Below, piece by piece: positions 2,953 through 22,841 of a DNA stretch of 64,000 nucleotides. The stretch lies in assembly GCA_035705495.1 (NCBI GenBank), contig DASSWB010000026.1, positions 13,206 through 77,205 on the forward strand. Direction: 5' to 3'. The position numbers and the translations under genes are program-made. Origin of the DNA: Salinimicrobium sp. (GTDB taxonomy: Bacteria; Bacteroidota; Bacteroidia; Flavobacteriales; Flavobacteriaceae). Positions within the stretch are counted from its first letter, which is position 1. Every line of letters begins with the position of its first letter. The notes below the pieces were generated by a model that was not told the DNA's origin, ran no database searches, and was given only the letters and a program-made list of their open reading frames with translations.

Positions 2953-5052
2953 TTAATAGAGATCTTTTATTTTTTGTAATTTCTCTTTCCACATTTCGAG
3001 TTGTTCTTTTTGTTTCTCAATATTCTTGTGAACTTCCCGTACCAATGGATTATCAGAATTGGCATTACTGAAAAATTGAAGGTTGTTTTCCAGTTGTCTG
3101 ATTTCTGCCTGGGTTTCTTCTACTTTCTTAGATAAGAAATAATGTTCGTTTTTTAATTTTGAAACATCGTCAGCATCATTTAATATTTGGATTTTGTTGT
3201 CAAATTTCAACATCTCCGCTTCAGATTTTTTCAAATCCAGTTGACCAAATAAATGATCTATCGCTTTGTTGAATTTTCCTTCAATAAATCGCACTTTGTG
3301 ATTCACGTTTCCAATTTCTTTCCAACGTGCAATAAACGATTTTATGATTGCAAGTTTGGCTTCGTGATCTCCAGATAATTCGGTGTTTTTCACCTCATCC
3401 AGAAGTGCTTTTTTCTGTTCAAAAGCTTGTCCTTCTTCTTTGTTTTCTTCATTTCTTTCAGCATGTAATCTGTCAAAGAAATGATTACAAGCTGCTTTGA
3501 ACCTTTTCCAAATTTTGTCGCTGTCTTTTCTGGGAACATGGCCAATTTTCTTCCAATCGTCCTGAATTTTTTTCATGACCGCAACGGTGGCCTTCATGTC
3601 TTCATTGTCCTTGTTCTCTTCAGCAATTTTCACCAGTTCCAACTTCTTCTCTAAATTGTCGAACTGCTCTTTCTTGAGATTTTTGTAATAAGCATTTTTA
3701 TTTCTGTTGAATTGCCTCACCGTTTTTTTGAAGTCGGTCCAGATTTCATCTGTGGCTTCTCTTGGTACTTTTCCCGCGTTAAAAAACTCGGTTCTTAAAG
3801 CTTCTACATTTTTTATTTGTTGCTGTAACTGCTGATGTGATTGTCCTTGAATGTCAACAACTTCATTGAGTTTCTGAATAATTTCTTTCTTTTTCTCTAG
3901 GTTTTTTTCACGTTCCTGATCGAGTTGTTTGAAATATTCTTGGCGTTTATCGTGGATTTTTTTTGTCGCTTCACTGAAACGCTCCCAAAGTTCATCCCGA
4001 TACTCTTTCGCAACTGGACCCAAATCTTCCTTCCACATTTTGTGCAGCATTTGAAGCTCCCGGAACGCTCTATTGGTATCTTCCTCTTGCGCCAATTCGT
4101 CAGCGCGGTCTATTATTTTTAATTTTTGCTCAAGATTATGTTTGAAGTCCAAATCCCTGAACTCTCTGTTCAAGTGAAGAAAATCATAAAAATTCTCAAC
4201 ATGATGGTGGTAATTGTTCCAAACATTATTGTATTTATCACGCGGAATTGCTCCTGCTGCCTTCCAGCGCTCCTGAAGTTCTTTAAAGTGTTTGTAGGTT
4301 GTATTGATGTTTTCCTCAACATCTATCAAACCTTTCAATTCCTCAATGATCTGCAATCGTTTTTTTAGATTTTCTTCAAGGTTCTGTTTGAGGTTTTGAT
4401 AGTATTTATTCCTTTTCTCCTTGTAATCAAAATATACATCGCTGTATCTTTTTTTCAGGGGAGTGGAATAATGGAAATCGATAATGTTTCCTCCTTCAGC
4501 AAGAAATTCTTCTTTTTTCTCTTCAAAATCTTCCTCAAACTTGTTGTTGAATTCCGTTTTTATTTCTTCAACATGATCGCGAATTGCCTGAATTTTATAA
4601 TTTTTCACCAGATGCTCCAATTCATTTACAAGTTGTTCCTGAGTCATTTTTTCATACTCTTTCACAGGAATTCCGTGTTTTTCATTGGTGGTTTCATCTT
4701 CACTTTCTTCCGCAACCGCATCGTCCATTTCACCTTGTGCATCTTTTTTCTTGGTAGATGCATCCTCTTTCCCTTCAGTGTTGGCAGCGACAAGAGTCTC
4801 TTCGGTTCGGATTTCTGATTTTTCAGCTGATGCTTCAGATTCTTCAACCATGGCATCTTCTATACTGTTCTGTTTTTTTTCGTCCGAATTTTCTGTGGCT
4901 TGTTCCTGAAGTTGATCGTTCGTGGTTTCCTCTTCCAAAGGTTTCTCCACAATATTTTCTGCAGGTTGGTTCCCTGCATTTATTTTTTCTTCGGAATTGA
5001 TTTGATCAGGAGAAAGTTGCTTTGGTTGCTCTTTTTCGGACATTTTTTTCAA
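2953..5052 (-). CDS. DUF349 repeat protein with acidic N-terminal region
   Basis: 699 aa with at least 5 repeats of the W-x-x-x-G-x-(V/I)P-x(5-6)-(I/L)W-x-(R/D/N)F pattern (ERWKAAGAIPRDKYNNVWNNY, DDWKKIGHVPRKDSDKIWKRF, etc.). Confidence 0.8.
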   Translation of the reverse strand: MKKMSEKEQPKQLSPDQINSEEKINAGNQPAENIVEKPLEEETTNDQLQEQATENSDEKKQNSIEDAMVEESEASAEKSEIRTEETLVAANTEGKEDASTKKKDAQGEMDDAVAEESEDETTNEKHGIPVKEYEKMTQEQLVNELEHLVKNYKIQAIRDHVEEIKTEFNNKFEEDFEEKKEEFLAEGGNIIDFHYSTPLKKRYSDVYFDYKEKRNKYYQNLKQNLEENLKKRLQIIEELKGLIDVEENINTTYKHFKELQERWKAAGAIPRDKYNNVWNNYHHHVENFYDFLHLNREFRDLDFKHNLEQKLKIIDRADELAQEEDTNRAFRELQMLHKMWKEDLGPVAKEYRDELWERFSEATKKIHDKRQEYFKQLDQEREKNLEKKKEIIQKLNEVVDIQGQSHQQLQQQIKNVEALRTEFFNAGKVPREATDEIWTDFKKTVRQFNRNKNAYYKNLKKEQFDNLEKKLELVKIAEENKDNEDMKATVAVMKKIQDDWKKIGHVPRKDSDKIWKRFKAACNHFFDRLHAERNEENKEEGQAFEQKKALLDEVKNTELSGDHEAKLAIIKSFIARWKEIGNVNHKVRFIEGKFNKAIDHLFGQLDLKKSEAEMLKFDNKIQILNDADDVSKLKNEHYFLSKKVEETQAEIRQLENNLQFFSNANSDNPLVREVHKNIEKQKEQLEMWKEKLQKIKDLY

Positions 5053-7896: not shown

Positions 7897-9294
7897 CTAT
7901 GATTGCTGCTTATATGCGGAGATAATTTTTTGGATAGGTTCTTGGTCAAATACGCTGGGGAAAAGTTCTTCGATAATGATATAGTATTCAACATCAATTT
8001 TCAATGCATTTTTCAAATGGAAAAAACCTTTCTCGTTTTGCTCCAAATAAAAGAAAAGCCCTGCCAATCGATATTCTATTTCTGCGGTTTCAGGATAAAA
8101 TTCATAGGCATGAAACAGGTTTTGAATTGCTGTTTCAAATTCCCCTAGGTTGATGAGGATATCGCAACGTTTAATCCATGTTTCGAGTTCGTAGTTACCC
8201 AGATCCAAGCTTTTTTTGTAGCCTTTTTCAGCCTCTTTTAGGAAATACAGTTTATTGTTGATTTTCGCATAACGCTTCCAATACAAAACATTGTCTTCAT
8301 CAATACTAATTGCTTTATTGATGTAAAAAAGTGCCTTTTGATAATCCATTTTTTTGTAATAAAAATCGGTTATCGCAATCCATCCTTTATCCAGTAAGGG
8401 ATCTTCATGCACGGTTTTGCTGTAATTTTCCAAAGCGAGATCGTGCAAACCCAATTTTTCATAACATTTACCTATTCGGAGGTAAGCGAAAGAAGTGGGG
8501 TCATCCAATTCCAAAGTGATGTTGTAATTTTCAATCGCTTCATTATAACGCTTCAGTTTTTCGAGAACTTTCCCTTTTTCAAGGTAGGCTCCAAGAAAGT
8601 ACTCGTCGCTTATAATGGCAAAATCAAAAGATCTTAAAGCTTTTTCATATTGTTTTAAATCGAAATATTGTTTGCCTAGTTGATGCCAAGCTACTTCACA
8701 ATATGGGTTTTTGTCCAGAAATTCGTTTAGGAAATCGATTGCTTCGCCAGATTGTTCTAAAAAATCAAAACAATACATGATGTTGTAAAGCGCAGAATAA
8801 TCTTCTTCATCTGCTTCCAAACATTTTATAAAGTTGTTTTTGGCATTTTCATAATCTTCCAGAAACAAAAATTCCATGCCCATCAATGAGTAAACATCGG
8901 CCTCATCTACAGTCATTTCCAAAGCCAACTTAAGCATTTTTATTGCTTCTTTGTGCTTGTCTTTTTTAGAGAGAATGTTCGCTTTTTGTATATAAATTTC
9001 TTCGTTTGAGGATTCTAACTGATATAATTCGCCCAAAATTCCATCCGCCAAATCCAGTTTGTTTTCAAAAACAAGGATTTCGACCTTAAGTAATTTTAGA
9101 TTTGTTGAGGAGGGATGCTGTGCCAAACCCAATTTGACAGCTTTTTTTGCAAGTGCTATTTTTCCATTTTCCAAATAATGATGTACAATATTTTCAAATT
9201 CTTCAGAATCGAAAAATAATACATCATTTGTTTTTAGCATGGATTCGAAACGGACAAGGGAGAAATTATTTTCTTCGTTATGGCTTAATTGCAT
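7897..9294 (-). CDS. tetratricopeptide-repeat protein
   Basis: 465 aa, all-helical, with a recurring 34-aa A/Y/L TPR-like periodicity (e.g. AWHQLGKQYFDLKQYEKALRSFDFAI). Confidence 0.75.
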   Translation of the reverse strand: MQLSHNEENNFSLVRFESMLKTNDVLFFDSEEFENIVHHYLENGKIALAKKAVKLGLAQHPSSTNLKLLKVEILVFENKLDLADGILGELYQLESSNEEIYIQKANILSKKDKHKEAIKMLKLALEMTVDEADVYSLMGMEFLFLEDYENAKNNFIKCLEADEEDYSALYNIMYCFDFLEQSGEAIDFLNEFLDKNPYCEVAWHQLGKQYFDLKQYEKALRSFDFAIISDEYFLGAYLEKGKVLEKLKRYNEAIENYNITLELDDPTSFAYLRIGKCYEKLGLHDLALENYSKTVHEDPLLDKGWIAITDFYYKKMDYQKALFYINKAISIDEDNVLYWKRYAKINNKLYFLKEAEKGYKKSLDLGNYELETWIKRCDILINLGEFETAIQNLFHAYEFYPETAEIEYRLAGLFFYLEQNEKGFFHLKNALKIDVEYYIIIEELFPSVFDQEPIQKIISAYKQQS

Positions 9295-14270: not shown

Positions 14271-16478
14271 TTATTCACGGGTTACCTTATCTATACCGTT
14301 GATTTTTTTAAGGTGTTCCATAAGGGTTTTTAATATGGAATTGTTTTTGACAATGACCGTTATTTTCCCTGTAAAAATGCCGTCGGAACTTTCAAAATTT
14401 ATTTTTCGGATATTCACGTTCATGTTGTTCGAAATTTCCCGAGTCACTTCATTCACCAAACCAATGTTGTCAATACCGGTCAAACTGATCACCGATTTAA
14501 ATTCTTCTTGAGACGAATCGATCCATTTTGCGGAAATGATCCGGTACGCAAAATTACTCTGGAGTTGAATCGCGTTTGGGCAATCCTTTTTATGAACTTT
14601 AATGCCTTCGCTAACGGTCAAAAATCCGAAGACACTGTCGCCAGGAATTGGATTGCAACAATTGGCAAGTTTGTAATCAAATTTTTCTTCTTCTTTTCCA
14701 AAAACAAGCTGATCATAATTTGCCGTTACCTCATCCTTATCAATATCCTCAGCAACATGAGGTTTTCTGATCTTGTTTTTGATGAAACTCATTAAAGCGT
14801 TGCTTCGGGAAGCAGCAAATTCTTTTAATTTGGTATTTTCAATACGACCTATCCCGACTCGATAGAATAAATCCAGACTTGTTTTCAGTTTGAAAAAAAT
14901 GACAAGATCGTTCACCGTCTTTTCATTGAACGGAATTTTCTGTGCCTTCAGTTTTCGCCGAAGAATTGCTTTTCCTTCTTCCGCAATTTCCTTTTTCTCG
15001 TCTTTAAGAGACGATTTAATTTTGGCCCTCGCCCTTGCTGTTGTAGCGTAATCCAACCAGTTGGCCGTAGGTTTGCTTTTTTCCGAAGTAATAATATCGA
15101 CTTGGTCACCGCTCTTTAGCTCGTGACTTAAAGGAACCAGTTTTCCGTTAACGCGGGCACCTCTTGTGTGTAAACCGATTTCTGTATGAATGCTGAAAGC
15201 AAAATCCAGTGGTGTAGCACCTTTGGGCAAGGATTTTAAATCCCCTTGCGGTGTGAAAACGAAGATTTCCTTGGAATATAAATTCAGTTTAAACTGCTCT
15301 ACAAAATCGACCGCATTGATTTCTGATCCTTCCAATACTTCTTGAAGTTTGTTGAGCCATTCTTCAAGTCCTTTTTCCTCTTGAACCGAGCCTTGTTTGT
15401 ATTTATAATGTGCAGCGTAACCTTTCTCCGCTATTTCGTTCATTCTATCACTCCGGATTTGCACTTCCACCCATCTTCCTTTTGGTCCCATTACGGTAAT
15501 ATGAAGCGCTTCGTAGCCTGTGGATTTAGGGGAAGAAATCCAGTCTCTTAATCGCGTTGGATTGGGTCGAAAATGATCCGTTACGATTGAATATATTTTC
15601 CAAGCGATAAATTTTTCATTCGATGCATCCGTATTGTAAATGATTCTTACGGCAAATTTATCATAGACTTCATCAAAACTTACATTCTGATTTTTCATTT
15701 TCCGCCGTATCGAATAAATAGATTTTGGTCTTCCTTTTATATCGTAAGTTAAATCCTCTTTATCCAAAGAATCTTTGATCACCTTGGTAAATTCCTTTAT
15801 ATAAAGATCTTGTTCCTCTTTACTTTCTTTGATTTTCGTGAAAATTTCGTTGTAAACTTCGGGCTCGGTATATTTTAACCCAAGATCTTCAAGGTCTGTT
15901 TTTATATTGTACAACCCGATACGGTGTGCCAAAGGAGCATAAATATATAAGGTTTCAGAGGCAATTTTTTCCTGTTTGTCCGGTTGCATGGAATCCATTG
16001 TTTGCATGTTGTGCAACCGATCTGCGATTTTTATGATAATTACACGAACGTCATCATTCAACGTAAGTAACATTTTACGGAAGTTTTCGGCTTGAAGTGA
16101 AACGTCTTTATCGTGCTTGAGATGCGAAATTTTTGTGAGTCCGTCAACAATATGGGCGATGGTTTCGCCGAATAATTCCCGAAGATTTTCAAGCGTGTAA
16201 GAAGTATCTTCAACAACATCATGTAACAGGGCAGCAGCGATACAAGTTGCATCCAGACCAATTTCCGATGCGACAATTTTCGCAACGGCGATTGGATGGA
16301 AAATATAAGCTTCGCCCGATTTACGCCGCTGGCCGTTATGTGCATCAACGGCGGTATCAAAAGCCAAACGAATCAATTTTTTATCTTCTGCGGAAAGCGT
16401 TTGATAACTAATTCGAAGCAATTCTTTGTACTGCCTTGCGATCTCTTTATTTTCTTGCTCTAATGCTGCTTCTGTCAT
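14271..16478 (-). CDS. bifunctional (p)ppGpp synthetase/hydrolase, RelA/SpoT homologue
   Basis: 735 aa. HD hydrolase motif (LLHDVVEDT), synthetase domain (YEALHITV), TGS and ACT-like C-terminus. Confidence 0.95.
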   Translation of the reverse strand: MTEAALEQENKEIARQYKELLRISYQTLSAEDKKLIRLAFDTAVDAHNGQRRKSGEAYIFHPIAVAKIVASEIGLDATCIAAALLHDVVEDTSYTLENLRELFGETIAHIVDGLTKISHLKHDKDVSLQAENFRKMLLTLNDDVRVIIIKIADRLHNMQTMDSMQPDKQEKIASETLYIYAPLAHRIGLYNIKTDLEDLGLKYTEPEVYNEIFTKIKESKEEQDLYIKEFTKVIKDSLDKEDLTYDIKGRPKSIYSIRRKMKNQNVSFDEVYDKFAVRIIYNTDASNEKFIAWKIYSIVTDHFRPNPTRLRDWISSPKSTGYEALHITVMGPKGRWVEVQIRSDRMNEIAEKGYAAHYKYKQGSVQEEKGLEEWLNKLQEVLEGSEINAVDFVEQFKLNLYSKEIFVFTPQGDLKSLPKGATPLDFAFSIHTEIGLHTRGARVNGKLVPLSHELKSGDQVDIITSEKSKPTANWLDYATTARARAKIKSSLKDEKKEIAEEGKAILRRKLKAQKIPFNEKTVNDLVIFFKLKTSLDLFYRVGIGRIENTKLKEFAASRSNALMSFIKNKIRKPHVAEDIDKDEVTANYDQLVFGKEEEKFDYKLANCCNPIPGDSVFGFLTVSEGIKVHKKDCPNAIQLQSNFAYRIISAKWIDSSQEEFKSVISLTGIDNIGLVNEVTREISNNMNVNIRKINFESSDGIFTGKITVIVKNNSILKTLMEHLKKINGIDKVTRE

Positions 16479-16675: not shown

Positions 16676-18422
16676 ATGAAACCCATTAAATTTCTGATTG
16701 CGCTTACCACAATTTCGCTCCTGATTAGTTGCGAATATGAAGAGGATGTTGAAACAAATATGAGTGGAGTATCTTTGGAAGAATACAGCGTTACCAATAT
16801 GAATGGAAAACAGATCCAGATGAATGCTGCACTTGTAGAAAAGTTGAGGTTGTTTAGGAATACACCTATGTTAACTGGAAAAATTGGTGATACAATCTCG
16901 GTTTCCATTGATACTACATTTGCAAAATATGTTGAAAGTAAAGATGGATTATATCATTCCTATACTTTTTCGTCATTAAATGATAGATATAAGAATATTT
17001 TGTTTTCCCAAAAAAGAGATGGTACGTATGGAACTTTTTTAGTAGAATATAATTTAACTCCAGAACAGAAAAAGTCGCTCTTGTTAGGTGAGGAAATTTT
17101 TTTTACTAATGAAGTAAAAACCACTGCTATAGAATTTACCGGTGGAAATCTCGAGATGGCAGTGAAAATGAGCGCCTGTATCGACGTTGCTTGGACATTC
17201 ACACCAGGAGAACCTTGCGTTGCCGGATTTTATTTTGGTGATCCCCGTTGTACACATACTTCAGGACCTGATGCGCCAACACCTGGGCAAATGGTAATGA
17301 CAGTTACAAACAACTGGTGGCGGTGGAAGCGTCAATTTTGGCTCATTACCTAACTCAAATCCTCCAAGCGGAGGGGGTATTTATACAGACATTAATTCCA
17401 CCTTTAATCCAGTTACCACCTACACCATGCCACCCGCCGTAAGCAGAAGGAAAATTTTCTTCATGAATTTAAATCCAGATCAGTTGGCATGTTTCAATAA
17501 TACCACAACCACAGGTTCTGGGTTGACTCCTCAAGATTCACTTCAAGTGATGAATTTTTTGGAGAACAGTTTGTTGGAAAATGGTTTGATTGCAGATTCT
17601 TCTATTTATCCTGGTGATGCCTCGGGTTTTGCTGCGGAAGCTATTACGACTATTTGTGAGGATGGTGAAGTGGATTGGGAGGAGCAGGTGATTCTAGATG
17701 ATTCTTTTACTCAAAACGACTGCCTGTATGGAATTTACCAGCAAATGGGTGAGGCGCCAATATTCAACGGCTACTTACAAAGTTTTGATAGTGATGGTTC
17801 TGTGGCAGATTTGAAGTTTAAAGCTGATAGCAACTTTGCGACAAATAGGGAAACAAAATATCATAATGCTATGGCAATAACGGATCCTCCATTGAATTCC
17901 GTTTTAATTAATATTACTTTTAACACTGATGTAACCACTACAGGAAATATTCTAGATAAACCTGATGTTTTCAAAGCTGTATCGCTTATACACGAGATTT
18001 TACATGCTGAAATGTATAGAAAAATGTTGGATGCAGTGAGAGCCGCTGAAATAAGCGGAAATAGTTTAGATTGGGCCAATTGGACCAGCGAGGAGTTTTA
18101 TAACGATTTTTTGGATAGTTTAGAAAATAAATATTTTGGAATATTTGATTACTTTACAAGGTATAAATATGGCATACCTGTTGGGAGTAACCCTAACGAT
18201 TACCAACACCAACAGCTGGCAGAACATTATCGGGACATAGTAAAGCAAGCATTAACAGAATATGATCCTAATCTCACAGAGGCACAAAAAGAAGCACTTT
18301 CGTGGATTGGTTTAAATAGCGCAGATATTGTGGCTTGGCAAAATTTAACACCAATAGACCAACAAATAATAAACAACAACATAGAAAACATGAAAAACAA
18401 CTTAGAAAATGGATGCAATTAA
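16676..18422 (+). pseudogene. lipoprotein with C-terminal HExxH (zincin-like) module, split by a frameshift within 17301-17353
   Basis: ORF 16676..17353 has a lipobox (LLISC). Its frame ends in junk-like NNWWRWKRQFWLIT*. The frame of ORF 17427..18422 is open from 17301 and reads as a G/S/P/N linker (TTGGGGSVNFGSLPNSNPPSGGGIYTD...) before the tracked Met. LIHEILHAEMY contains the HExxH. Confidence 0.55.
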
Positions 18423-18855
18423 AAAAACTGCTTTTGTCGCTTTGTTTATCCCTTGGCTGATCTTTTCACAGAAAGAAAACGGAACATTGTATCCAAAAGA
18501 TACGATTTATATCCAATATGTACACACACAACAAAATAATGATTGGAATGCAAAATTTAAAAGAAACTATCGAGGAGAATTTGGGATTTTCTTCAATATC
18601 GAAAGTAGTAGTGGAGACATAGCACTATTTTATTCTTTTAAGAAAAAAGCAGATACTTTATGTATAGAGTACTTGAACAATTTTCATTTATCCAGCTTGG
18701 AAGAGATTAATGAAAAGAGGAACGAATGGATTTTTAACAACAAACGGCCTCCTGCAGATAGAAACGGAGTCTTTCAAACTTATGTTGTCGAAATAATCTC
18801 GAACAATAAATTTGTAAAATATCCTGTGATATGGCGAAATGAGGGAAAGTATTGA
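18409..18855 (+). CDS. small exported protein P1 (immunity/inhibitor-like, uncharacterised)
   Basis: 148 aa. Signal peptide MDAIKKTAFVALFIPWLIFSQ. The start overlaps the HExxH gene stop by 14 nt. Shares the beta-rich pattern of P2-P5 (DTIYIQY ... TYVVEII ... YPVIWRNEG). Confidence 0.6.
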   Translation: MDAIKKTAFVALFIPWLIFSQKENGTLYPKDTIYIQYVHTQQNNDWNAKFKRNYRGEFGIFFNIESSSGDIALFYSFKKKADTLCIEYLNNFHLSSLEEINEKRNEWIFNNKRPPADRNGVFQTYVVEIISNNKFVKYPVIWRNEGKY

Positions 18856-18903
18856 TTACTGATTGGTCTCATTCTTTTTGCTGTCAATAGCTTCTCCTTA
18901 ACT

Positions 18904-19167
18904 ACCTATCAACAACAATTGGCAGATTTTATTTATAATAACCATGAATGGAATAGTGAAAATTCAAATTTCGTCAGTCAAATGCAATTATATTTTGGTG
19001 TAAATTGGAAAGAAAAAACTGCGGAGGCTTGTAGTTGGATAGGTCTTACAGAAACAGATCAATATTACGATTTTGTAAATGGATTATCTGCGGCTGAAGC
19101 ATTAGGTTTCGATCAAATATCCAGACAAAAAATGTTCATTAATGATGCCAATTCAAATTGTAATTAG
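18904..19167 (+). pseudogene. orphan 3' fragment paralogous to the last ~85 codons of the HExxH lipoprotein gene
   Basis: TYQQQLADF...CSWIGLTETD...NDANSNCN* parallels DYQHQQLAEHY...LSWIGLNSAD...NLENGCN* of the full-length gene. It has no HExxH and no ATG (the tracked start is TTG at 18919). Confidence 0.6.
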
Positions 19168-19168
19168 T

Positions 19169-19678
19169 ATGAAAAATCTTTATATATTTTTCTTAATAAG
19201 TTTTGGTCTCAATTTTTCTCAAAATAATATTGGTCCAGTAGATAAGAAAGGATATGATTTGTATATCGTTTATGAAGAATTAGATAAAATTTTCACAAAA
19301 CCTATAGACACTACAGATGAAAATTTACACTATAGTGTTTATACCTTAAGAATCCCTAACCAAAATAATCCAAGGTTTGTATTTAATTTTAAAGATAAGG
19401 ATAGTCTAGAGTTGGGCTATACCCTAAAGGGAGGCAATGGTACGGACTTTGATTTTAATTTTTCTCACAATAGTAAAGAACATGAAAAGTTTTATATTGA
19501 AAAAAATAAACACTTAGAGAATCAAATATCTATAAATCATATTTTGGCTTCTAATCTTAAAGTATTCGAGAGAGTATTAGAAAAGGCTAATATAATATAT
19601 ATATTGGAGGTAGTTGATGAAGAAAGTTTCGAATACATAGCAAGAGAAGTGAGTTATTCAAAGGATATTAAGCTATGA
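19169..19678 (+). CDS. small exported protein P2 (uncharacterised)
   Basis: 169 aa from ATG 19169 (MKNLYIFFLISFGLNFSQ signal peptide). It starts 1 nt after the orphan fragment's stop, mirroring the toxin/P1 junction. The tracked ORF 19142 start is probably spurious. Confidence 0.6.
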   Translation: MKNLYIFFLISFGLNFSQNNIGPVDKKGYDLYIVYEELDKIFTKPIDTTDENLHYSVYTLRIPNQNNPRFVFNFKDKDSLELGYTLKGGNGTDFDFNFSHNSKEHEKFYIEKNKHLENQISINHILASNLKVFERVLEKANIIYILEVVDEESFEYIAREVSYSKDIKL

Positions 19679-19741
19679 TTTATTAAGGGCACAAGAAAGA
19701 ATATTATACCAACTGATTTATCATTTGATAATAGGTGATAG
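19679..19741 (+). repeat. remnant of a P5-type gene 3' end (FIKGTRKNIIPTDLSFDNR*)
   Basis: Near-identical at the DNA level to 21350-21410, which encodes the P5 C-terminus (YEGTRKNIIPTDLSFDNKG*). Confidence 0.6.
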
Positions 19742-20267
19742 CCGCTCAATTCTAATTGATTCACGTATAAAAAATCTGATATTTATTATTGCGTTCTTGT
19801 TTTCTATAAATGTTTTTTCTCAAGAAAAGCAGAATGTGTATCAGGATATTTATATCATGACAAATTACTTTACTCAGGATTTTTTGGGATATAAAGCCTA
19901 TTTTGATATTAAAAGTACAGATTTAAGATTCACGCATGACACTTATTTTTTCAGGATAGACTTTCCGGATATTGATTATAGTAGCCTCTATAGTTTGGGA
20001 AAACCTGTGAATATAGATTCGATAGAGGTGATGGAGCCTAAGCAGTTTTTTTACAATAAATCAAATAATTTTATTCACACAGAACTAAGTCTTTGGGAAA
20101 AAGAAAACAACACACGAATTTTTATCGTTGCTGAAATTCCTTCAAGTCGATTAAGAAGACAGGCGGATAAATCAAAAAAGCACATGATTTGGGACGTGGA
20201 CTATGTTGGGACGATGAAAGAATTCTATCAAATGCTGATGACAAAAGGTTTGTTATCGGGAGATTGA
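19725..20267 (+). CDS. small exported protein P3 (uncharacterised); start codon uncertain
   Basis: Signal peptide IKNLIFIIAFLFSINVFSQ. The position homologous to the P2 ATG is ATA here. The only tracked start is TTG 19725, inside the remnant above. Resembles P5 (IHTELSLWEK/IHNELSLIKE; VDYVGT/LIYEGT). Confidence 0.5.
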   Translation: MIIGDSRSILIDSRIKNLIFIIAFLFSINVFSQEKQNVYQDIYIMTNYFTQDFLGYKAYFDIKSTDLRFTHDTYFFRIDFPDIDYSSLYSLGKPVNIDSIEVMEPKQFFYNKSNNFIHTELSLWEKENNTRIFIVAEIPSSRLRRQADKSKKHMIWDVDYVGTMKEFYQMLMTKGLLSGD

Positions 20268-20295
20268 AAAATATCCCCAGAAGATTTGAATAAAA

Positions 20296-20418
20296 ATGAA
20301 AAACGTATATTTTCTGTTAATCGTAATATTGCTGTCTTGTGAAGTTGTTTCACAACAAACCAGATTAAGTATTTTGGATATTATAGAAGCTTTTCACGAT
20401 AATAACCCAGACTGTTAA
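20296..20418 (+). CDS. 40-aa mini-ORF with a lipoprotein-type signal (MKNVYFLLIVILLSCEVVSQQ...), possibly a truncated cassette
   Basis: Read by hand; it falls below the ORF-track length cut-off. The stop lies 2 nt before the P4 ATG. Confidence 0.3.
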   Translation: MKNVYFLLIVILLSCEVVSQQTRLSILDIIEAFHDNNPDC

Positions 20419-20420
20419 TT

Positions 20421-20876
20421 ATGAAATACAAATTGTACATATTATTTTTCATGTTTTGTTTACAAAAAGGCTTAGCTCAAAAAAAACCGCAGCTTTGTAT
20501 ATGCTTTACTGAAAAAACAAAATATATTGAAGTCAATACCAGTGAAGATTCCACAAAAACCAGTTTTACAATTGTTAGAGGAGGATTTGAAACGAAAGAA
20601 AAAAGAAAAAAAAATTTAGAAAATTATCAAGCGGGGCCTCCTTCGGCATCGGGGCAACCCAGTTTTACTATTAATTACTATACGTCAAAAAGACCAGAAA
20701 GAATTGATTTGATAAACTCCAATGATGAGTGCGAATTCTTCATTACATTAGATCAGTTCCGTCAAAAAGAATTTGGCTTTCCAAAGGGAATAGGAGGCTC
20801 TCAAGTAATTTTTTTGAAAAAACTCCCTGATGGCTCATTTTTAAAATGGAATCCTATACTAATGGCACGCGAATAA
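20421..20876 (+). CDS. small exported protein P4 (uncharacterised)
   Basis: 151 aa. Signal peptide MKYKLYILFFMFCLQKGLAQ. Late motif SQVIFLKKLPDGSFLKWNPILMARE, as in the other P proteins. Confidence 0.55.
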   Translation: MKYKLYILFFMFCLQKGLAQKKPQLCICFTEKTKYIEVNTSEDSTKTSFTIVRGGFETKEKRKKNLENYQAGPPSASGQPSFTINYYTSKRPERIDLINSNDECEFFITLDQFRQKEFGFPKGIGGSQVIFLKKLPDGSFLKWNPILMARE

Positions 20877-20945
20877 AACTGATTAATCTTTTGAATGTAA
20901 GGATAAATTCAACATTAGTTTTAATGATAAAGAAAGTAGGTTATT

Positions 20946-21410
20946 ATGAAACGGTTAATTCTTATTGCTTTATTAATTTTCAGCTTTCAATATGCTGTTT
21001 CCCAGAATGATACTATTTATCTAATGGTAGAAGATGTTTCCATTCAATCAAGAATAGGACAAGAATTATCTTGGGGGTTTTTGGTTAAAAGCCATGATGA
21101 TCGTTTCATTTGTGATTATTACAAATTTCAAATTCCAAATTGGATGGGCATTGATGAGAAAGGAGAAGATATTTTTTTTAACGCTGATCAGTTAAAAAAA
21201 GGAATTGATTTGGATTCCATTCATTTCGAAACCATTTCGTCTTTTATTCTTAATAAAAAACCTTGGGAGATACATAATGAATTAAGTTTGATAAAGGAAA
21301 TATTTATTATTGGACGACAAAATGGCAATTATTATTTCTTGCCATTAATTTATGAGGGCACACGAAAAAATATTATACCAACTGATTTATCCTTTGATAA
21401 TAAAGGATAG
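20946..21410 (+). CDS. small exported protein P5 (uncharacterised)
   Basis: 154 aa. Signal peptide MKRLILIALLIFSFQYAVSQ. Then DTIYLMVE ... KEIFIIGRQNGNYYFLPLIYEGT. Confidence 0.6.
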   Translation: MKRLILIALLIFSFQYAVSQNDTIYLMVEDVSIQSRIGQELSWGFLVKSHDDRFICDYYKFQIPNWMGIDEKGEDIFFNADQLKKGIDLDSIHFETISSFILNKKPWEIHNELSLIKEIFIIGRQNGNYYFLPLIYEGTRKNIIPTDLSFDNKG

Positions 21411-21439
21411 TGCCAGTTGTAATTGATTCACGTCTTAAA

Positions 21440-21527
21440 AAGAATCTTTATATATTCATTTTTAACACATTTTGGTATCAATTTTTCTCAGAATAACAAT
21501 GATCCCATAGATAAGAAGGGATATGAT
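21440..21527 (+). pseudogene. decayed 5' fragment of a P2-type gene (no ATG, indel, stops)
   Basis: By-eye alignment shows roughly 85% identity to 19172-19258 (AATCTTTATATATT...TTTTGGT.TCAATTTTTCTCA.AATAA...TAGATAAGAA.GGATATGAT). Confidence 0.6.
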
Positions 21528-21540
21528 GATTATAATGAAT

Positions 21541-21571
21541 AAAAAAGCCGCAGAATTGCGGCATTTTTTTT
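21541..21571. terminator. bidirectional intrinsic terminator (GCCGCA-GAAT-TGCGGC, A6 before, T8 after)
   Basis: Read directly. It closes the plus-strand island array and sits about 40 nt beyond the minus-strand M48 stop. Confidence 0.7.
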
Positions 21572-21608: not shown

Positions 21609-22841
21609 TTAATTTTCCAAATTTTTTATTCTTTGAAAAAGAGTGGGATGTGAATAATGTATAAAAACATAAGCGGGATGCGGCGTTAAATTACTTAAAC
21701 TGTTCTTGGATAATTTTTTAAGACCAGAAATCAATGCTTCAGATTCAAAAGTATTTTTAGCATATTCGTCTGCTTGATATTCGAATTTTCTAGAGATTAA
21801 ATTCATTATTATTCCTGTTACCTCGGAAATCGGTCCGTATAAAATACCGAAAGCAATCAAGCCGACATGAAAACTTGGTTGTTCAACTCCCAAAGCATTT
21901 GAAAGCAACGGATTGTTTATGAAAAGCGAAAGCAACCACAACGTAAATCCGGTGATCAAGATGGAAATAATCAAATTGAAAATAATGTGCTTCTTTTTAT
22001 AATGACCGACTTCATGCGCCAAAACGGCAACGATTTCGGGTTCATCCAAGTCATTGATCAAGGTGTCGTACAGTGTGATTCGCTTTTCTTTTCCAAAACC
22101 AGAAAAATAGGCGTTCGCTTTTGTGCTTCTTTTTGAACCATCAATTACGAAAATATTGTCCAGTGTAAAACCGACTTTTTGCGCATAAGTTTCGATTTGA
22201 TCTCTTAAAGAACCTTCACCTAAAGGTGTTTGTTTGTTGAAAATCGGCACAATCAATTTTGCATAAAACATATTGACGAAAACCGAAAAAATCGCCACCA
22301 ATCCCCAAGTGTAAAGCCAGAAATTATCGTCGGTGATTTGGTAGAACCAAATGATAAGTGACAAGATCCCGCCGCCCACGATAATCATCATTGCCCAAGA
22401 TTTGAGCTTGTCTAAAAAGAAAGTCTTTTTTGTGGTTTTATTGAAACCGTATTTTTCTTCAATCACAAAAGTGTTGTAGTAAGAAAACGGAAGACTTATG
22501 ATGTCACTTGCGAGCATTATAATTCCGAAGAAAATCAAACCAATTACAATTTCATTATCTGAAATGGAACGTGCAATTTCATCCACAAAATCAAATCCGT
22601 CGAGGAAGAGAAAAAGCAATGTTACAATGATTGAAAATGTAGAAGAAATAATTCCGAAGCTGTATTTTTCCTTTTTATAACGCATTGATTTCTCGTATTC
22701 TTCAGCGTTGTAAATATCTTGCAACGGTTCAGGAATCGGATCGTTAAAATGTTTGGCGTTCAGGAAATCGAGAATTTTTTCAATTAAAAAATCCAATAAT
22801 ATAATTCCGATGATAATGTAGAAAAGTGTGATTGAAGACAT
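21609..22841 (-). CDS. M48 family (Ste24/HtpX-like) integral-membrane zinc metalloprotease
   Basis: 410 aa. Multi-TM N-terminus and VLAHEVGHYKKKH (HExxH). The last 21 codons are duplicated at 16527-16592. Confidence 0.85.
   Translation of the reverse strand: MSSITLFYIIIGIILLDFLIEKILDFLNAKHFNDPIPEPLQDIYNAEEYEKSMRYKKEKYSFGIISSTFSIIVTLLFLFLDGFDFVDEIARSISDNEIVIGLIFFGIIMLASDIISLPFSYYNTFVIEEKYGFNKTTKKTFFLDKLKSWAMMIIVGGGILSLIIWFYQITDDNFWLYTWGLVAIFSVFVNMFYAKLIVPIFNKQTPLGEGSLRDQIETYAQKVGFTLDNIFVIDGSKRSTKANAYFSGFGKEKRITLYDTLINDLDEPEIVAVLAHEVGHYKKKHIIFNLIISILITGFTLWLLSLFINNPLLSNALGVEQPSFHVGLIAFGILYGPISEVTGIIMNLISRKFEYQADEYAKNTFESEALISGLKKLSKNSLSNLTPHPAYVFIHYSHPTLFQRIKNLEN

Follow-up and report, generated by a model that had tools for sequence, protein, structure and literature searches.

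A frame of 103 codons that begins without an ATG, wedged between two small genes, raises the question of what it derives from and why it is still there. The frame is located in a 64,000-nucleotide stretch of a Salinimicrobium sp. contig (DASSWB010000026.1, positions 13,206 to 77,205 of the forward strand, assembly GCA_035705495.1), which is referred to here as the window, and it runs from 18856 to a TAG at 19165–19167. It is preceded by P1 (18409–18855), which directly follows a gene encoding an HExxH toxin domain (the resident toxin gene, 16676–18422), and it is followed by P2 (19169–19678). All of these features are on the forward strand, and both P1 and P2 (MKNLYIFFLISFGLNFSQ...) are predicted to encode Sec-exported immunity proteins. 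A first-pass annotation had interpreted the frame as an orphan C-terminal piece of the resident gene lying in front of a cognate immunity gene. The evidence described below indicates that the frame is probably the 3' scar of a displaced toxin of a second kind, called type B here to distinguish it from the resident type A, whose cognate immunity gene P2 has been kept. Loci and proteins recovered by the searches are designated with L numbers and four-digit P numbers, respectively.

The remnant and its type-B relatives

The open frame at 18856–19167 is present as annotated, with TTG at 18919 as its first start-like codon. It continues the reading frame of P1, with nothing but the P1 TGA between them (18853–18858). 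The annotation also stated that no ATG is in frame, which is correct for the region upstream of the point where homology begins; downstream of that point there are in-frame ATGs at 18982 (M43) and 19129, and gene callers start a 61-residue open reading frame (ORF), P0056, at the first of these.

Homology to the tails of type-B toxins begins at 18874, 19 nt past the P1 stop, and tblastn comparison with type-B toxins defines the 3' remnant as 18874–19167, the last 97 or so codons of the toxin domain. Identity to type-B tails is 55–63% over 97–98 residues (18874–19164), with 63% over 97 residues to the C-terminus of the Psychroflexus halocasei protein at L011 (E=1.9e-34) and 55% to P0061 (E=1.5e-29). 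A database search with the remnant retrieved P0057, a 181-residue ORF with 60% identity across 94% of the remnant and with its own HExxH sequence (LVHEVIHAFMFDTLSDAG) upstream of the remnant-like tail. Searching in turn with P0057 provided P0060 (243 residues) and P0061 (257 residues, from Mesonia profundi MT50). All three proteins carry HE(V/L)IH upstream of a remnant-type tail, and the type-B core reads HELIHAYMFDTLSDAG. The frame is thus derived from a distinct domain with its own HExxH core and is not a fragment of the resident gene as first proposed. When aligned with P0057, P0060 and P0061, the longer type-B fragments, the remnant corresponds to the last ~97 of ~230 domain residues, begins about 130 codons 3' of the switch point at which toxin types diverge, and contains neither the HExxH helix, nor the pre-toxin motif at the switch point, nor a signal peptide. 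Pfam and NCBIfam scans of the toxin, the remnant and P1–P5 returned nothing meaningful.

An exhaustive hidden Markov model search with the type-B alignment gave 125 clusters. In 64 of these the protein is at least 480 residues long with the domain at its C-terminus, and the three members that were checked (P0064, P0065, P0077) are lipoproteins. Another 23 clusters consist of ORFs of 140 residues or fewer that begin inside the domain.

The motif pairs by which the remnant had been matched to the resident tail (TYQQQLADF with DYQHQQLAEHY, CSWIGLTETD with LSWIGLNSAD, and the endings ...N(G/S)(N)CN*) are all there, and the alignment of the two tails that had been proposed as a check shows a weak relationship at the protein level (12 of 32 residues identical by BLASTP, E=3e-5 in a single comparison) and a poor one at the DNA level, with little in common beyond TGGAT(T/A)GG and about 8–11 contiguous nucleotides at most. 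Profile–profile comparison of 37 type-A and 7 type-B sequences aligned 129 colinear columns (E=1.6e-4, probability 50%), from the strand before HExxH to SWIGL. By this comparison types A and B are distant homologues along the whole domain, at about 25% identity. The segment from SWIGL to the NxNCN tail is the most conserved between them, which runs counter to the suggestion that variability or partner specificity resides in the extreme C-terminus.

Toxin types, immunity genes and the polymorphic scaffold

The pairing of toxin types with immunity genes was examined across loci. Genes of the P2 family are found 3' of type-B tails, intact or remnant, in L001, L002–L007, L008, L009, L010 (twice) and L011, and P1 orthologues are found 3' of type-A toxins in L013 and L014 (40–42% identity, E about 1e-27 to 1e-30). 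The downstream immunity gene therefore varies together with the toxin type, with type A followed by P1 in the window, L013 and L014 and type B followed by P2 elsewhere. On this co-occurrence, P1 and P2 are partners of two alternative C-terminal variants, as the first-pass annotation had supposed, and the linkage of type B with P2 at other loci likewise bears out its orphan C-terminus plus cognate immunity arrangement. P2 in the window is a predicted orphan immunity gene. The signal peptides of P1–P5, judged by eye, appear to be of the Sec type and end in (S/A)Q. A further group of loci (L016–L018) encodes more distant type-B-like toxins, followed by longer signal-peptide proteins of 239–259 residues.

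The junctions differ between the two types. The P1 ATG at 18409 overlaps the stop of the resident toxin (ending at 18422) by 14 nt, and the same overlap occurs in L013 and L014. In the remnant, the TAG is followed by a single base and then the P2 ATG at 19169; nearly all type-B tail/P2-family junctions have this stop, 1 nt, ATG arrangement, which is seen in L001, L002, L008, L009, the second module of L010 and L011 and is kept in 8 loci. Each toxin type has its own geometry, and different loci of that type agree in it (-14 for type A, +1 for type B), so a conserved junction common to both types, as first described, does not exist.

A direct test of the orphan arrangement had been set by the earlier annotation, namely a full-length gene that ends in the orphan-type tail and stands immediately before a P2 orthologue. 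Scanning with a P2 profile matched only two loci among the genome contigs, and none among the metagenome contigs, while a tail-profile scan gave six matches. The P2 profile identified Psychroflexus halocasei DSM 23581 (L011), where a type-B frame is open for at least 482 codons from the contig edge and contains the pre-toxin motif, HELIHAYMFDTLSDAG and a tail ending in ...NNANSNCD*, followed after one base by a P2 orthologue (50% identical to P2, E=1e-58). A second example is Mesonia profundi MT50 (L009/L012), in which a type-B lipoprotein gene (LSSCEKDD...) precedes a P2 orthologue. The C-terminal domain and immunity gene of the window are thus found together on longer toxin genes elsewhere. 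That such a gene should be full-length is borne out in part: the L011 frame has its N-terminus cut by the contig edge, and the MT50 gene is frameshifted by a 1-nt deletion relative to P. halocasei. The two type-B genes (L009 9960–10130 and L011 640–810) are about 90% identical in DNA across different genera, which suggests a recent horizontal transfer of the type-B cassette.

The resident gene was treated as full-length by the first reading and is in fact split. Its N-terminal part (16676–17353) encodes a lipoprotein signal (..LISC|EYEEDVE), an N-terminal domain and, at the end, a Gly-rich linker, and tblastn relates it to the N-terminal end of P0008, a family member of full length (E=2e-11). 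This 225-residue ORF ends early through a frameshift, placed by three-frame translation at approximately 17306–17315, where ...QMVMTVTNN in one frame passes to GGGGSVNFGSL... in another; P0013 aligns with the second frame from 17313 by tblastn. The second frame (17313–18422) comprises the pre-toxin region and the type-A HExxH toxin domain, with HEILH at 17991–18005 and the ending ...ENGCN*. It has 55 homologues, mostly lipoproteins of Flavobacteriaceae of about 500–577 residues. No homopolymer is found at the frameshift site, and the split gene may be either a pseudogene or an assembly error. Programmed frameshifting was considered and rejected for want of a slippery sequence and because the MT50 gene is shifted at a different position.

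The family has the architecture of polymorphic toxins in the sense of Zhang et al. 2012 (PMC3482391). P0004, a type-A protein of Mesonia, and its type-B counterpart from MT50 exhibit 93–100% identity over alignment columns 241–300, which cover a common pre-toxin segment (...GNPSPGTEATSPIYLPMKSVIRKLAPYEDEAE...KEAIKAKCENS), and windowed identity falls abruptly to 7–30% past KAKCENS... This abrupt break between pre-toxin segment and domain is a hallmark of polymorphic toxins. A third type, C, is featured in L010 (HEILHAYLSYIY ... DNCN), and types A, B and C all follow the pre-toxin motif (E/D)(V/I)D(W/F)E... Surface lipoproteins of Bacteroidetes carry the export signal C-X-K-(D/E)2 or a comparable stretch of polar and then acidic residues after the lipobox Cys (Lauber et al. 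2016, PMC5080379), and N-termini within the family that fit this signal are SCEKDDS (MT50), SCQKDDD (L016) and NCEKE(E/D) (P0023, L014); from these motifs, we infer that lipoproteins of the family may be exported to the cell surface.

The AlphaFold2 model of the type-A domain (predicted local distance difference test score, pLDDT, 85; predicted template modelling score, pTM, 0.84) consists of a small beta-sheet, a long HExxH helix and a helical C-terminal half. Strands 52–58, 74–77 and 84–90 precede helix 104–130, which bears H113, E114 and H117; the HExxH motif is thus on a helix after a beta-sheet in the resident domain. The orphan has no such motif and corresponds to the helical C-terminal half of the model. 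Foldseek searches of the PDB gave no significant match for the type-A model, the best being 4l7a, a putative Bacteroides Zn-peptidase (E=0.36), or for the type-B model, which is of mediocre quality (pLDDT 67, 7 sequences; best E=2.4), and a profile search of PDB sequences provided nothing relevant. Types B and C match an SprT-like Pfam model at 16–17.5 bits, below the cut-off of 25.6 (E about 0.004), and the only Pfam or NCBIfam hints for these toxins and their neighbouring immunity genes are such sub-threshold matches to SprT-like and M91 models. Two Cys residues are invariant in the type-A alignment, one where the domain begins (..CL..) and the other in the penultimate position. The sequences suggest that the pair recurs in types B and C, and a disulphide between the two residues would fit an extracytoplasmic protein.

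Probable scars, the immunity array and competing explanations

Remnants like that of the window occur at other loci, and their 5' ends fall at different points. Type-B remnants start before HExxH in L010a, at HExxH in L001, just past it in L015 (where the 3' end is cut as well), near WSH.LF in L002 (with an internal frameshift), at LF..FS.TTYQQ in the window, at DFIFEKHDW in L010b, at NKHDW in L020 and at MMSYFG in L008. At least the last 61 codons are open in the remnants of the window, L008, L010b, L020 and L002. None of the type-B orphans examined retains the pre-toxin or demarcation region, and most also have no catalytic motif. The gene order at L010 is a type-C toxin, its own immunity gene, a 243-residue type-B orphan with a P2-like gene and an 82-residue type-B orphan with another P2-like gene, and L020/L019 mirrors the window, with a full toxin followed first by its immunity gene and then by a type-B remnant of 76 codons and a P2-like gene. 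Type-A tails have a similar fate: tandem P1 copies in L013 (7655–8424) and L014 (7679–9051) each follow a short type-A remnant of about 12 to 25 codons, those of L014 being at 8217 (with an internal stop) and 8616–8723. The tail remnants are read as recombination or deletion scars, which would persist because the start of the immunity gene is embedded in, or abuts, the last toxin codons.

Some of these loci exhibit further features. The second P1 copy of L013 is interrupted by a transposase of the IS3 family. In L020, the ORF at 4030–4773 has a lipoprotein signal of its own (FLSCSRQEDKDK), with almost nothing between it and a short HExxH domain (HEGIHARLW ... KECN), and an immunity-like gene comes next; this ORF may be a 'mini' toxin that dispenses with the extended N-terminal region. 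Upstream of the 181-residue type-B orphan of L001, the region 36–640 contains a 59-residue ORF and encodes a 142-residue protein that has no signal peptide. Neither is related to the HExxH family, and the pair may represent the tail and immunity protein of a different toxin class within this array.

Downstream of P2, the window continues with an array of signal-peptide genes and gene fragments on the forward strand. Just past P2, and overlapping the start of P3, is a recombination scar (19672–19774) in which the final 17 P5 codons (IKGTRKNIIPTDLSFDNR*) and the junction after them are duplicated. It forms an approximately 100-nt direct repeat with 21341–21441 (D2, 83%, and D4), and the P5 end within it is 88% identical over 17 residues by tblastn. 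The P3 gene (19725–20267) encodes a signal-peptide protein paralogous to P5 (30% identity over 119 residues, E=1.6e-5). It has ATA at 19767–19769 where P2 and the P2-like fragment described below have ATG, and its sole start-like codon, TTG at 19725, would add 14 residues before the signal peptide. The next ORF (20296–20418, 40 codons) encodes a signal peptide only (MKNVYFLLIVILLSCEVVSQQ...), with the lipoprotein-like signal LLSCEVVSQQ, and stops 2 nt short of P4; it probably derives from another immunity-type gene of which the 5' part is left. P4 (20421–20876), a signal-peptide protein with no detectable relatives among P1–P5, and P5 (20946–21410), the paralogue of P3, are both presumed to be orphan immunity genes. 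The 5' portion of a second P2-like gene (..KKNLYIFIF / FGINFSQNNNDPIDKKGYDDY..), truncated and frameshifted, follows at 21435–21533, related to 19190–19265 through repeat D1 (80% over 76 nt) and to P2 at the protein level (61% over 33 residues, tblastn).

A predicted bidirectional terminator-like hairpin at 21547–21562 closes the array. It is the only convincing site downstream of the toxin gene; the other sites called lie within the toxin coding sequence (17318–17626). As none was called from the toxin stop as far as 21547, the array is likely to be on a single transcript. The GC content is 28–31% across 18.5–21.5 kb, compared with 35–40% in the flanks, which contain a relA/spoT-like gene (14271–16478) and an M48-type peptidase gene (21609–22841), both on the reverse strand.

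These features are best accounted for if the region 16676–21534 of this marine Flavobacteriaceae bacterium is a locus of the polymorphic-toxin kind. The C-terminal ~250 residues of the resident lipoprotein would form the type-A HExxH toxin domain, probably a zincin-like metallopeptidase, and the Sec-exported P1 would be its cognate immunity protein. As to the order of events, we infer that recombination installed the type-A domain with P1 and displaced type B; alternatively, a pre-truncated module of remnant and P2 may have been imported into an immunity array. In either case the last ~97 type-B codons would survive at the ancestral stop, 1 nt, ATG junction with P2. The remnant itself cannot make a toxin, having no catalytic helix, switch point, signal peptide or upstream start, and it cannot be recombined back onto the main gene for want of upstream homology. 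P2 would be the selected, functional element, probably transcribed with the whole array and protecting the periplasm from the type-B toxins of neighbours. P3–P5 and the gene fragments would be further products of cassette turnover.

Several observations weigh against this account. With the type-A gene frameshifted, the strain may make no toxin at all, and the acidic sequence after the lipoprotein Cys in the window (SCEYEEDVE) does not have the Lys of the optimal export signal. The toxin domain has neither a Pfam or NCBIfam match above threshold nor a significant fold match in the PDB, solved zincins included, and the metallopeptidase label would rest on the helical HExxH together with the sub-threshold SprT-like matches. 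In a genome rich in A and T, the remnant has also kept 103 codons open, and its ratio of nonsynonymous to synonymous substitution (dN/dS) relative to the L015 remnant is about 0.24 (dN 0.15, dS 0.63; 53 codons, which cannot distinguish past from present constraint); both could reflect residual constraint rather than pure decay.

The last of these points bears on an explanation that is compatible with a scar origin and would give the remnant a present function. The remnant could be retained as a short leader ORF or expression element, translated from TTG 18919 or ATG 18982 and coupled to P2, and such coupling would explain the junction conserved in 8 loci, the five remnants whose last 61 or more codons are open, the conserved Met of M(x)SYFG, the low dN/dS and the 23 short tail-only ORFs among the type-B clusters. 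The junction and the Met are also present in intact toxins, however, and may merely have been inherited, and much of the low dN/dS may predate the loss of working toxin genes. The 5' boundaries vary widely and exhibit no conserved start context, remnants of about 5–25 codons precede other immunity copies, so that a long leader would be unneeded, and the remnant contains no promoter-like signal above chance: sigma-70-like sites are fewer than expected from shuffling, and TAnnTTTG, the -7 motif of Bacteroidetes, is at chance level, with none within the remnant. A leader function is considered rather unlikely. A broader reading, put forward tentatively as less likely than not, is that the whole constitutes an undescribed polymorphic-toxin system of marine Flavobacteriaceae in which a surface-exported lipoprotein bears one of several mutually distant HExxH types (A, B, C and others) without a Pfam family or a PDB fold match, the immunity proteins are Sec-exported, which implies a target in the periplasm, and 5'-eroded tails are systematically kept in the immunity arrays, with the tail ORF perhaps serving as a coupling leader.

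The remnant might also be a silent cassette for toxin switching, to be loaded onto the main gene by recombination. The arrangement does resemble CDI, Rhs and MafB orphans (PMC3150448, PMC3967940, PMC4287609), and C-terminal types in the lipoprotein HExxH family are indeed swapped at a defined point; the remnant, however, starts about 130 codons past that point, without HExxH, it has only about 8–11 contiguous nucleotides in common with the resident tail, and any fusion would yield an A/B chimera of domains that are about 25% identical. The pre-toxin region is retained by none of the orphans examined. A cassette role is very improbable. Recombination at the common YQ(H)QQ(L/M)A motif was rejected as the reason why remnant starts cluster near that motif, since the sequence upstream of the remnant is the 3' end of P1 and not that of a type-A toxin. 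Finally, the resemblance could be due to chance or composition, and the frame a non-coding spacer between P1 and P2. Compared directly, the remnant and the resident tail are similar over a short span (32 residues, 38%), and the DNA alignment is poor, as such a reading would predict; it is refuted by the E-value of 1.9e-34 to type-B tails of other genera and by synteny with P2 in more than 8 loci, and its probability is regarded as negligible. A scar of a displaced type-B toxin, with P2 kept, is the favoured explanation.

Significance and comparison with known systems

With this assignment, what had been a row of hypothetical genes can be read as a toxin/immunity locus with assigned pairs, type A with P1 and type B with P2. 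The orphan phenomenon is already well established; the toxin family is uncharacterised, and no curated family or solved structure was found for these lipoprotein-borne HExxH toxins. The orphan-module logic of contact-dependent growth inhibition (CDI), Rhs and MafB systems thereby extends to lipoprotein-borne HExxH toxins of marine Flavobacteriaceae. The frameshifted toxins of the window and MT50, which stand beside intact immunity genes, fit a pattern in which immunity outlasts the weapon, and such longer retention of immunity would matter for how antagonism shapes marine particle-associated communities.

A close parallel in arrangement is provided by the orphan modules of CDI and Rhs loci (Poole et al. 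2011, PMC3150448; Koskiniemi et al. 2014, PMC3967940). In these, as in the window, a C-terminal fragment without initiation signals is located 3' of a full toxin/immunity pair and is immediately followed by its cognate immunity gene, such modules are found in arrays, and the same C-terminal domain/immunity pair occurs on full-length genes in other bacteria. Loading of an orphan onto the main gene has been shown for Rhs and proposed for CDI and MafB orphans (PMC3150448, PMC3967940, PMC4287609). The systems differ in that there is no sequence relationship, the scaffold here is a lipoprotein of ~550–650 residues and not a filamentous or YD-repeat protein, and the immunity proteins carry Sec signal peptides. 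The orphans of the lipoprotein family are, moreover, 5'-eroded scars without a demarcation region equivalent to VENN or PxxxxDPxGL, so that homologous recombination cannot reload them, and the window remnant has neither a demarcation motif nor a complete toxin domain. The first-pass comparison with displaced CDI/Rhs-type orphans consequently holds for the position of the fragment and its missing initiation signals, and the remnant is not a typical orphan of that kind, having no switch-point motif and no catalytic helix (compare PMC3150448, PMC4287609).

The MafB toxins of Neisseria (Jamet et al. 2015, PMC4287609) are similar in being compact and non-filamentous, with a conserved N-terminus and a variable C-terminal region, and in having downstream C-terminal cassettes, some without an initiation codon, with an immunity gene after each. 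Unlike the family described here, MafB carries an ordinary signal peptide and a DUF1020 domain and depends on a separate lipoprotein, MafA, and MafB class-3 cassettes keep the DWVKN recombination motif, unlike the window remnant (PMC4287609). MafB is restricted to Neisseria (PMC4287609) and exhibits no homology with the window proteins.

A lipoprotein scaffold is found in SitA of Myxococcus (Vassallo et al. 2017, PMC5562445), an outer-membrane lipoprotein with a type II signal and lipobox, a polymorphic C-terminal toxin and an adjacent immunity gene 3' of the toxin gene. The SitA toxins are nucleases that act in the cytoplasm, with cytoplasmic immunity proteins, and reach their targets through TraAB outer-membrane exchange, a route confined to Myxococcales; no SitA homologues are reported outside this order (PMC5562445). 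With an HExxH domain and Sec-exported immunity proteins, the window system is related to SitA by analogy only. With regard to the domain itself, the Tox-MPTase1–5 and Wss1- or SprT-like toxins (Zhang et al. 2012, PMC3482391) likewise have small C-terminal HExxH domains, some of them in Bacteroidetes. No Tox-MPTase model was among the Pfam matches at E<=1, and those families are typically carried on RHS repeats, not on lipoproteins (PMC3482391). The lipobox-bearing effectors of Amoebophilus noted in the same survey (PMC3482391) recall the lipoprotein scaffold of the toxins described here.

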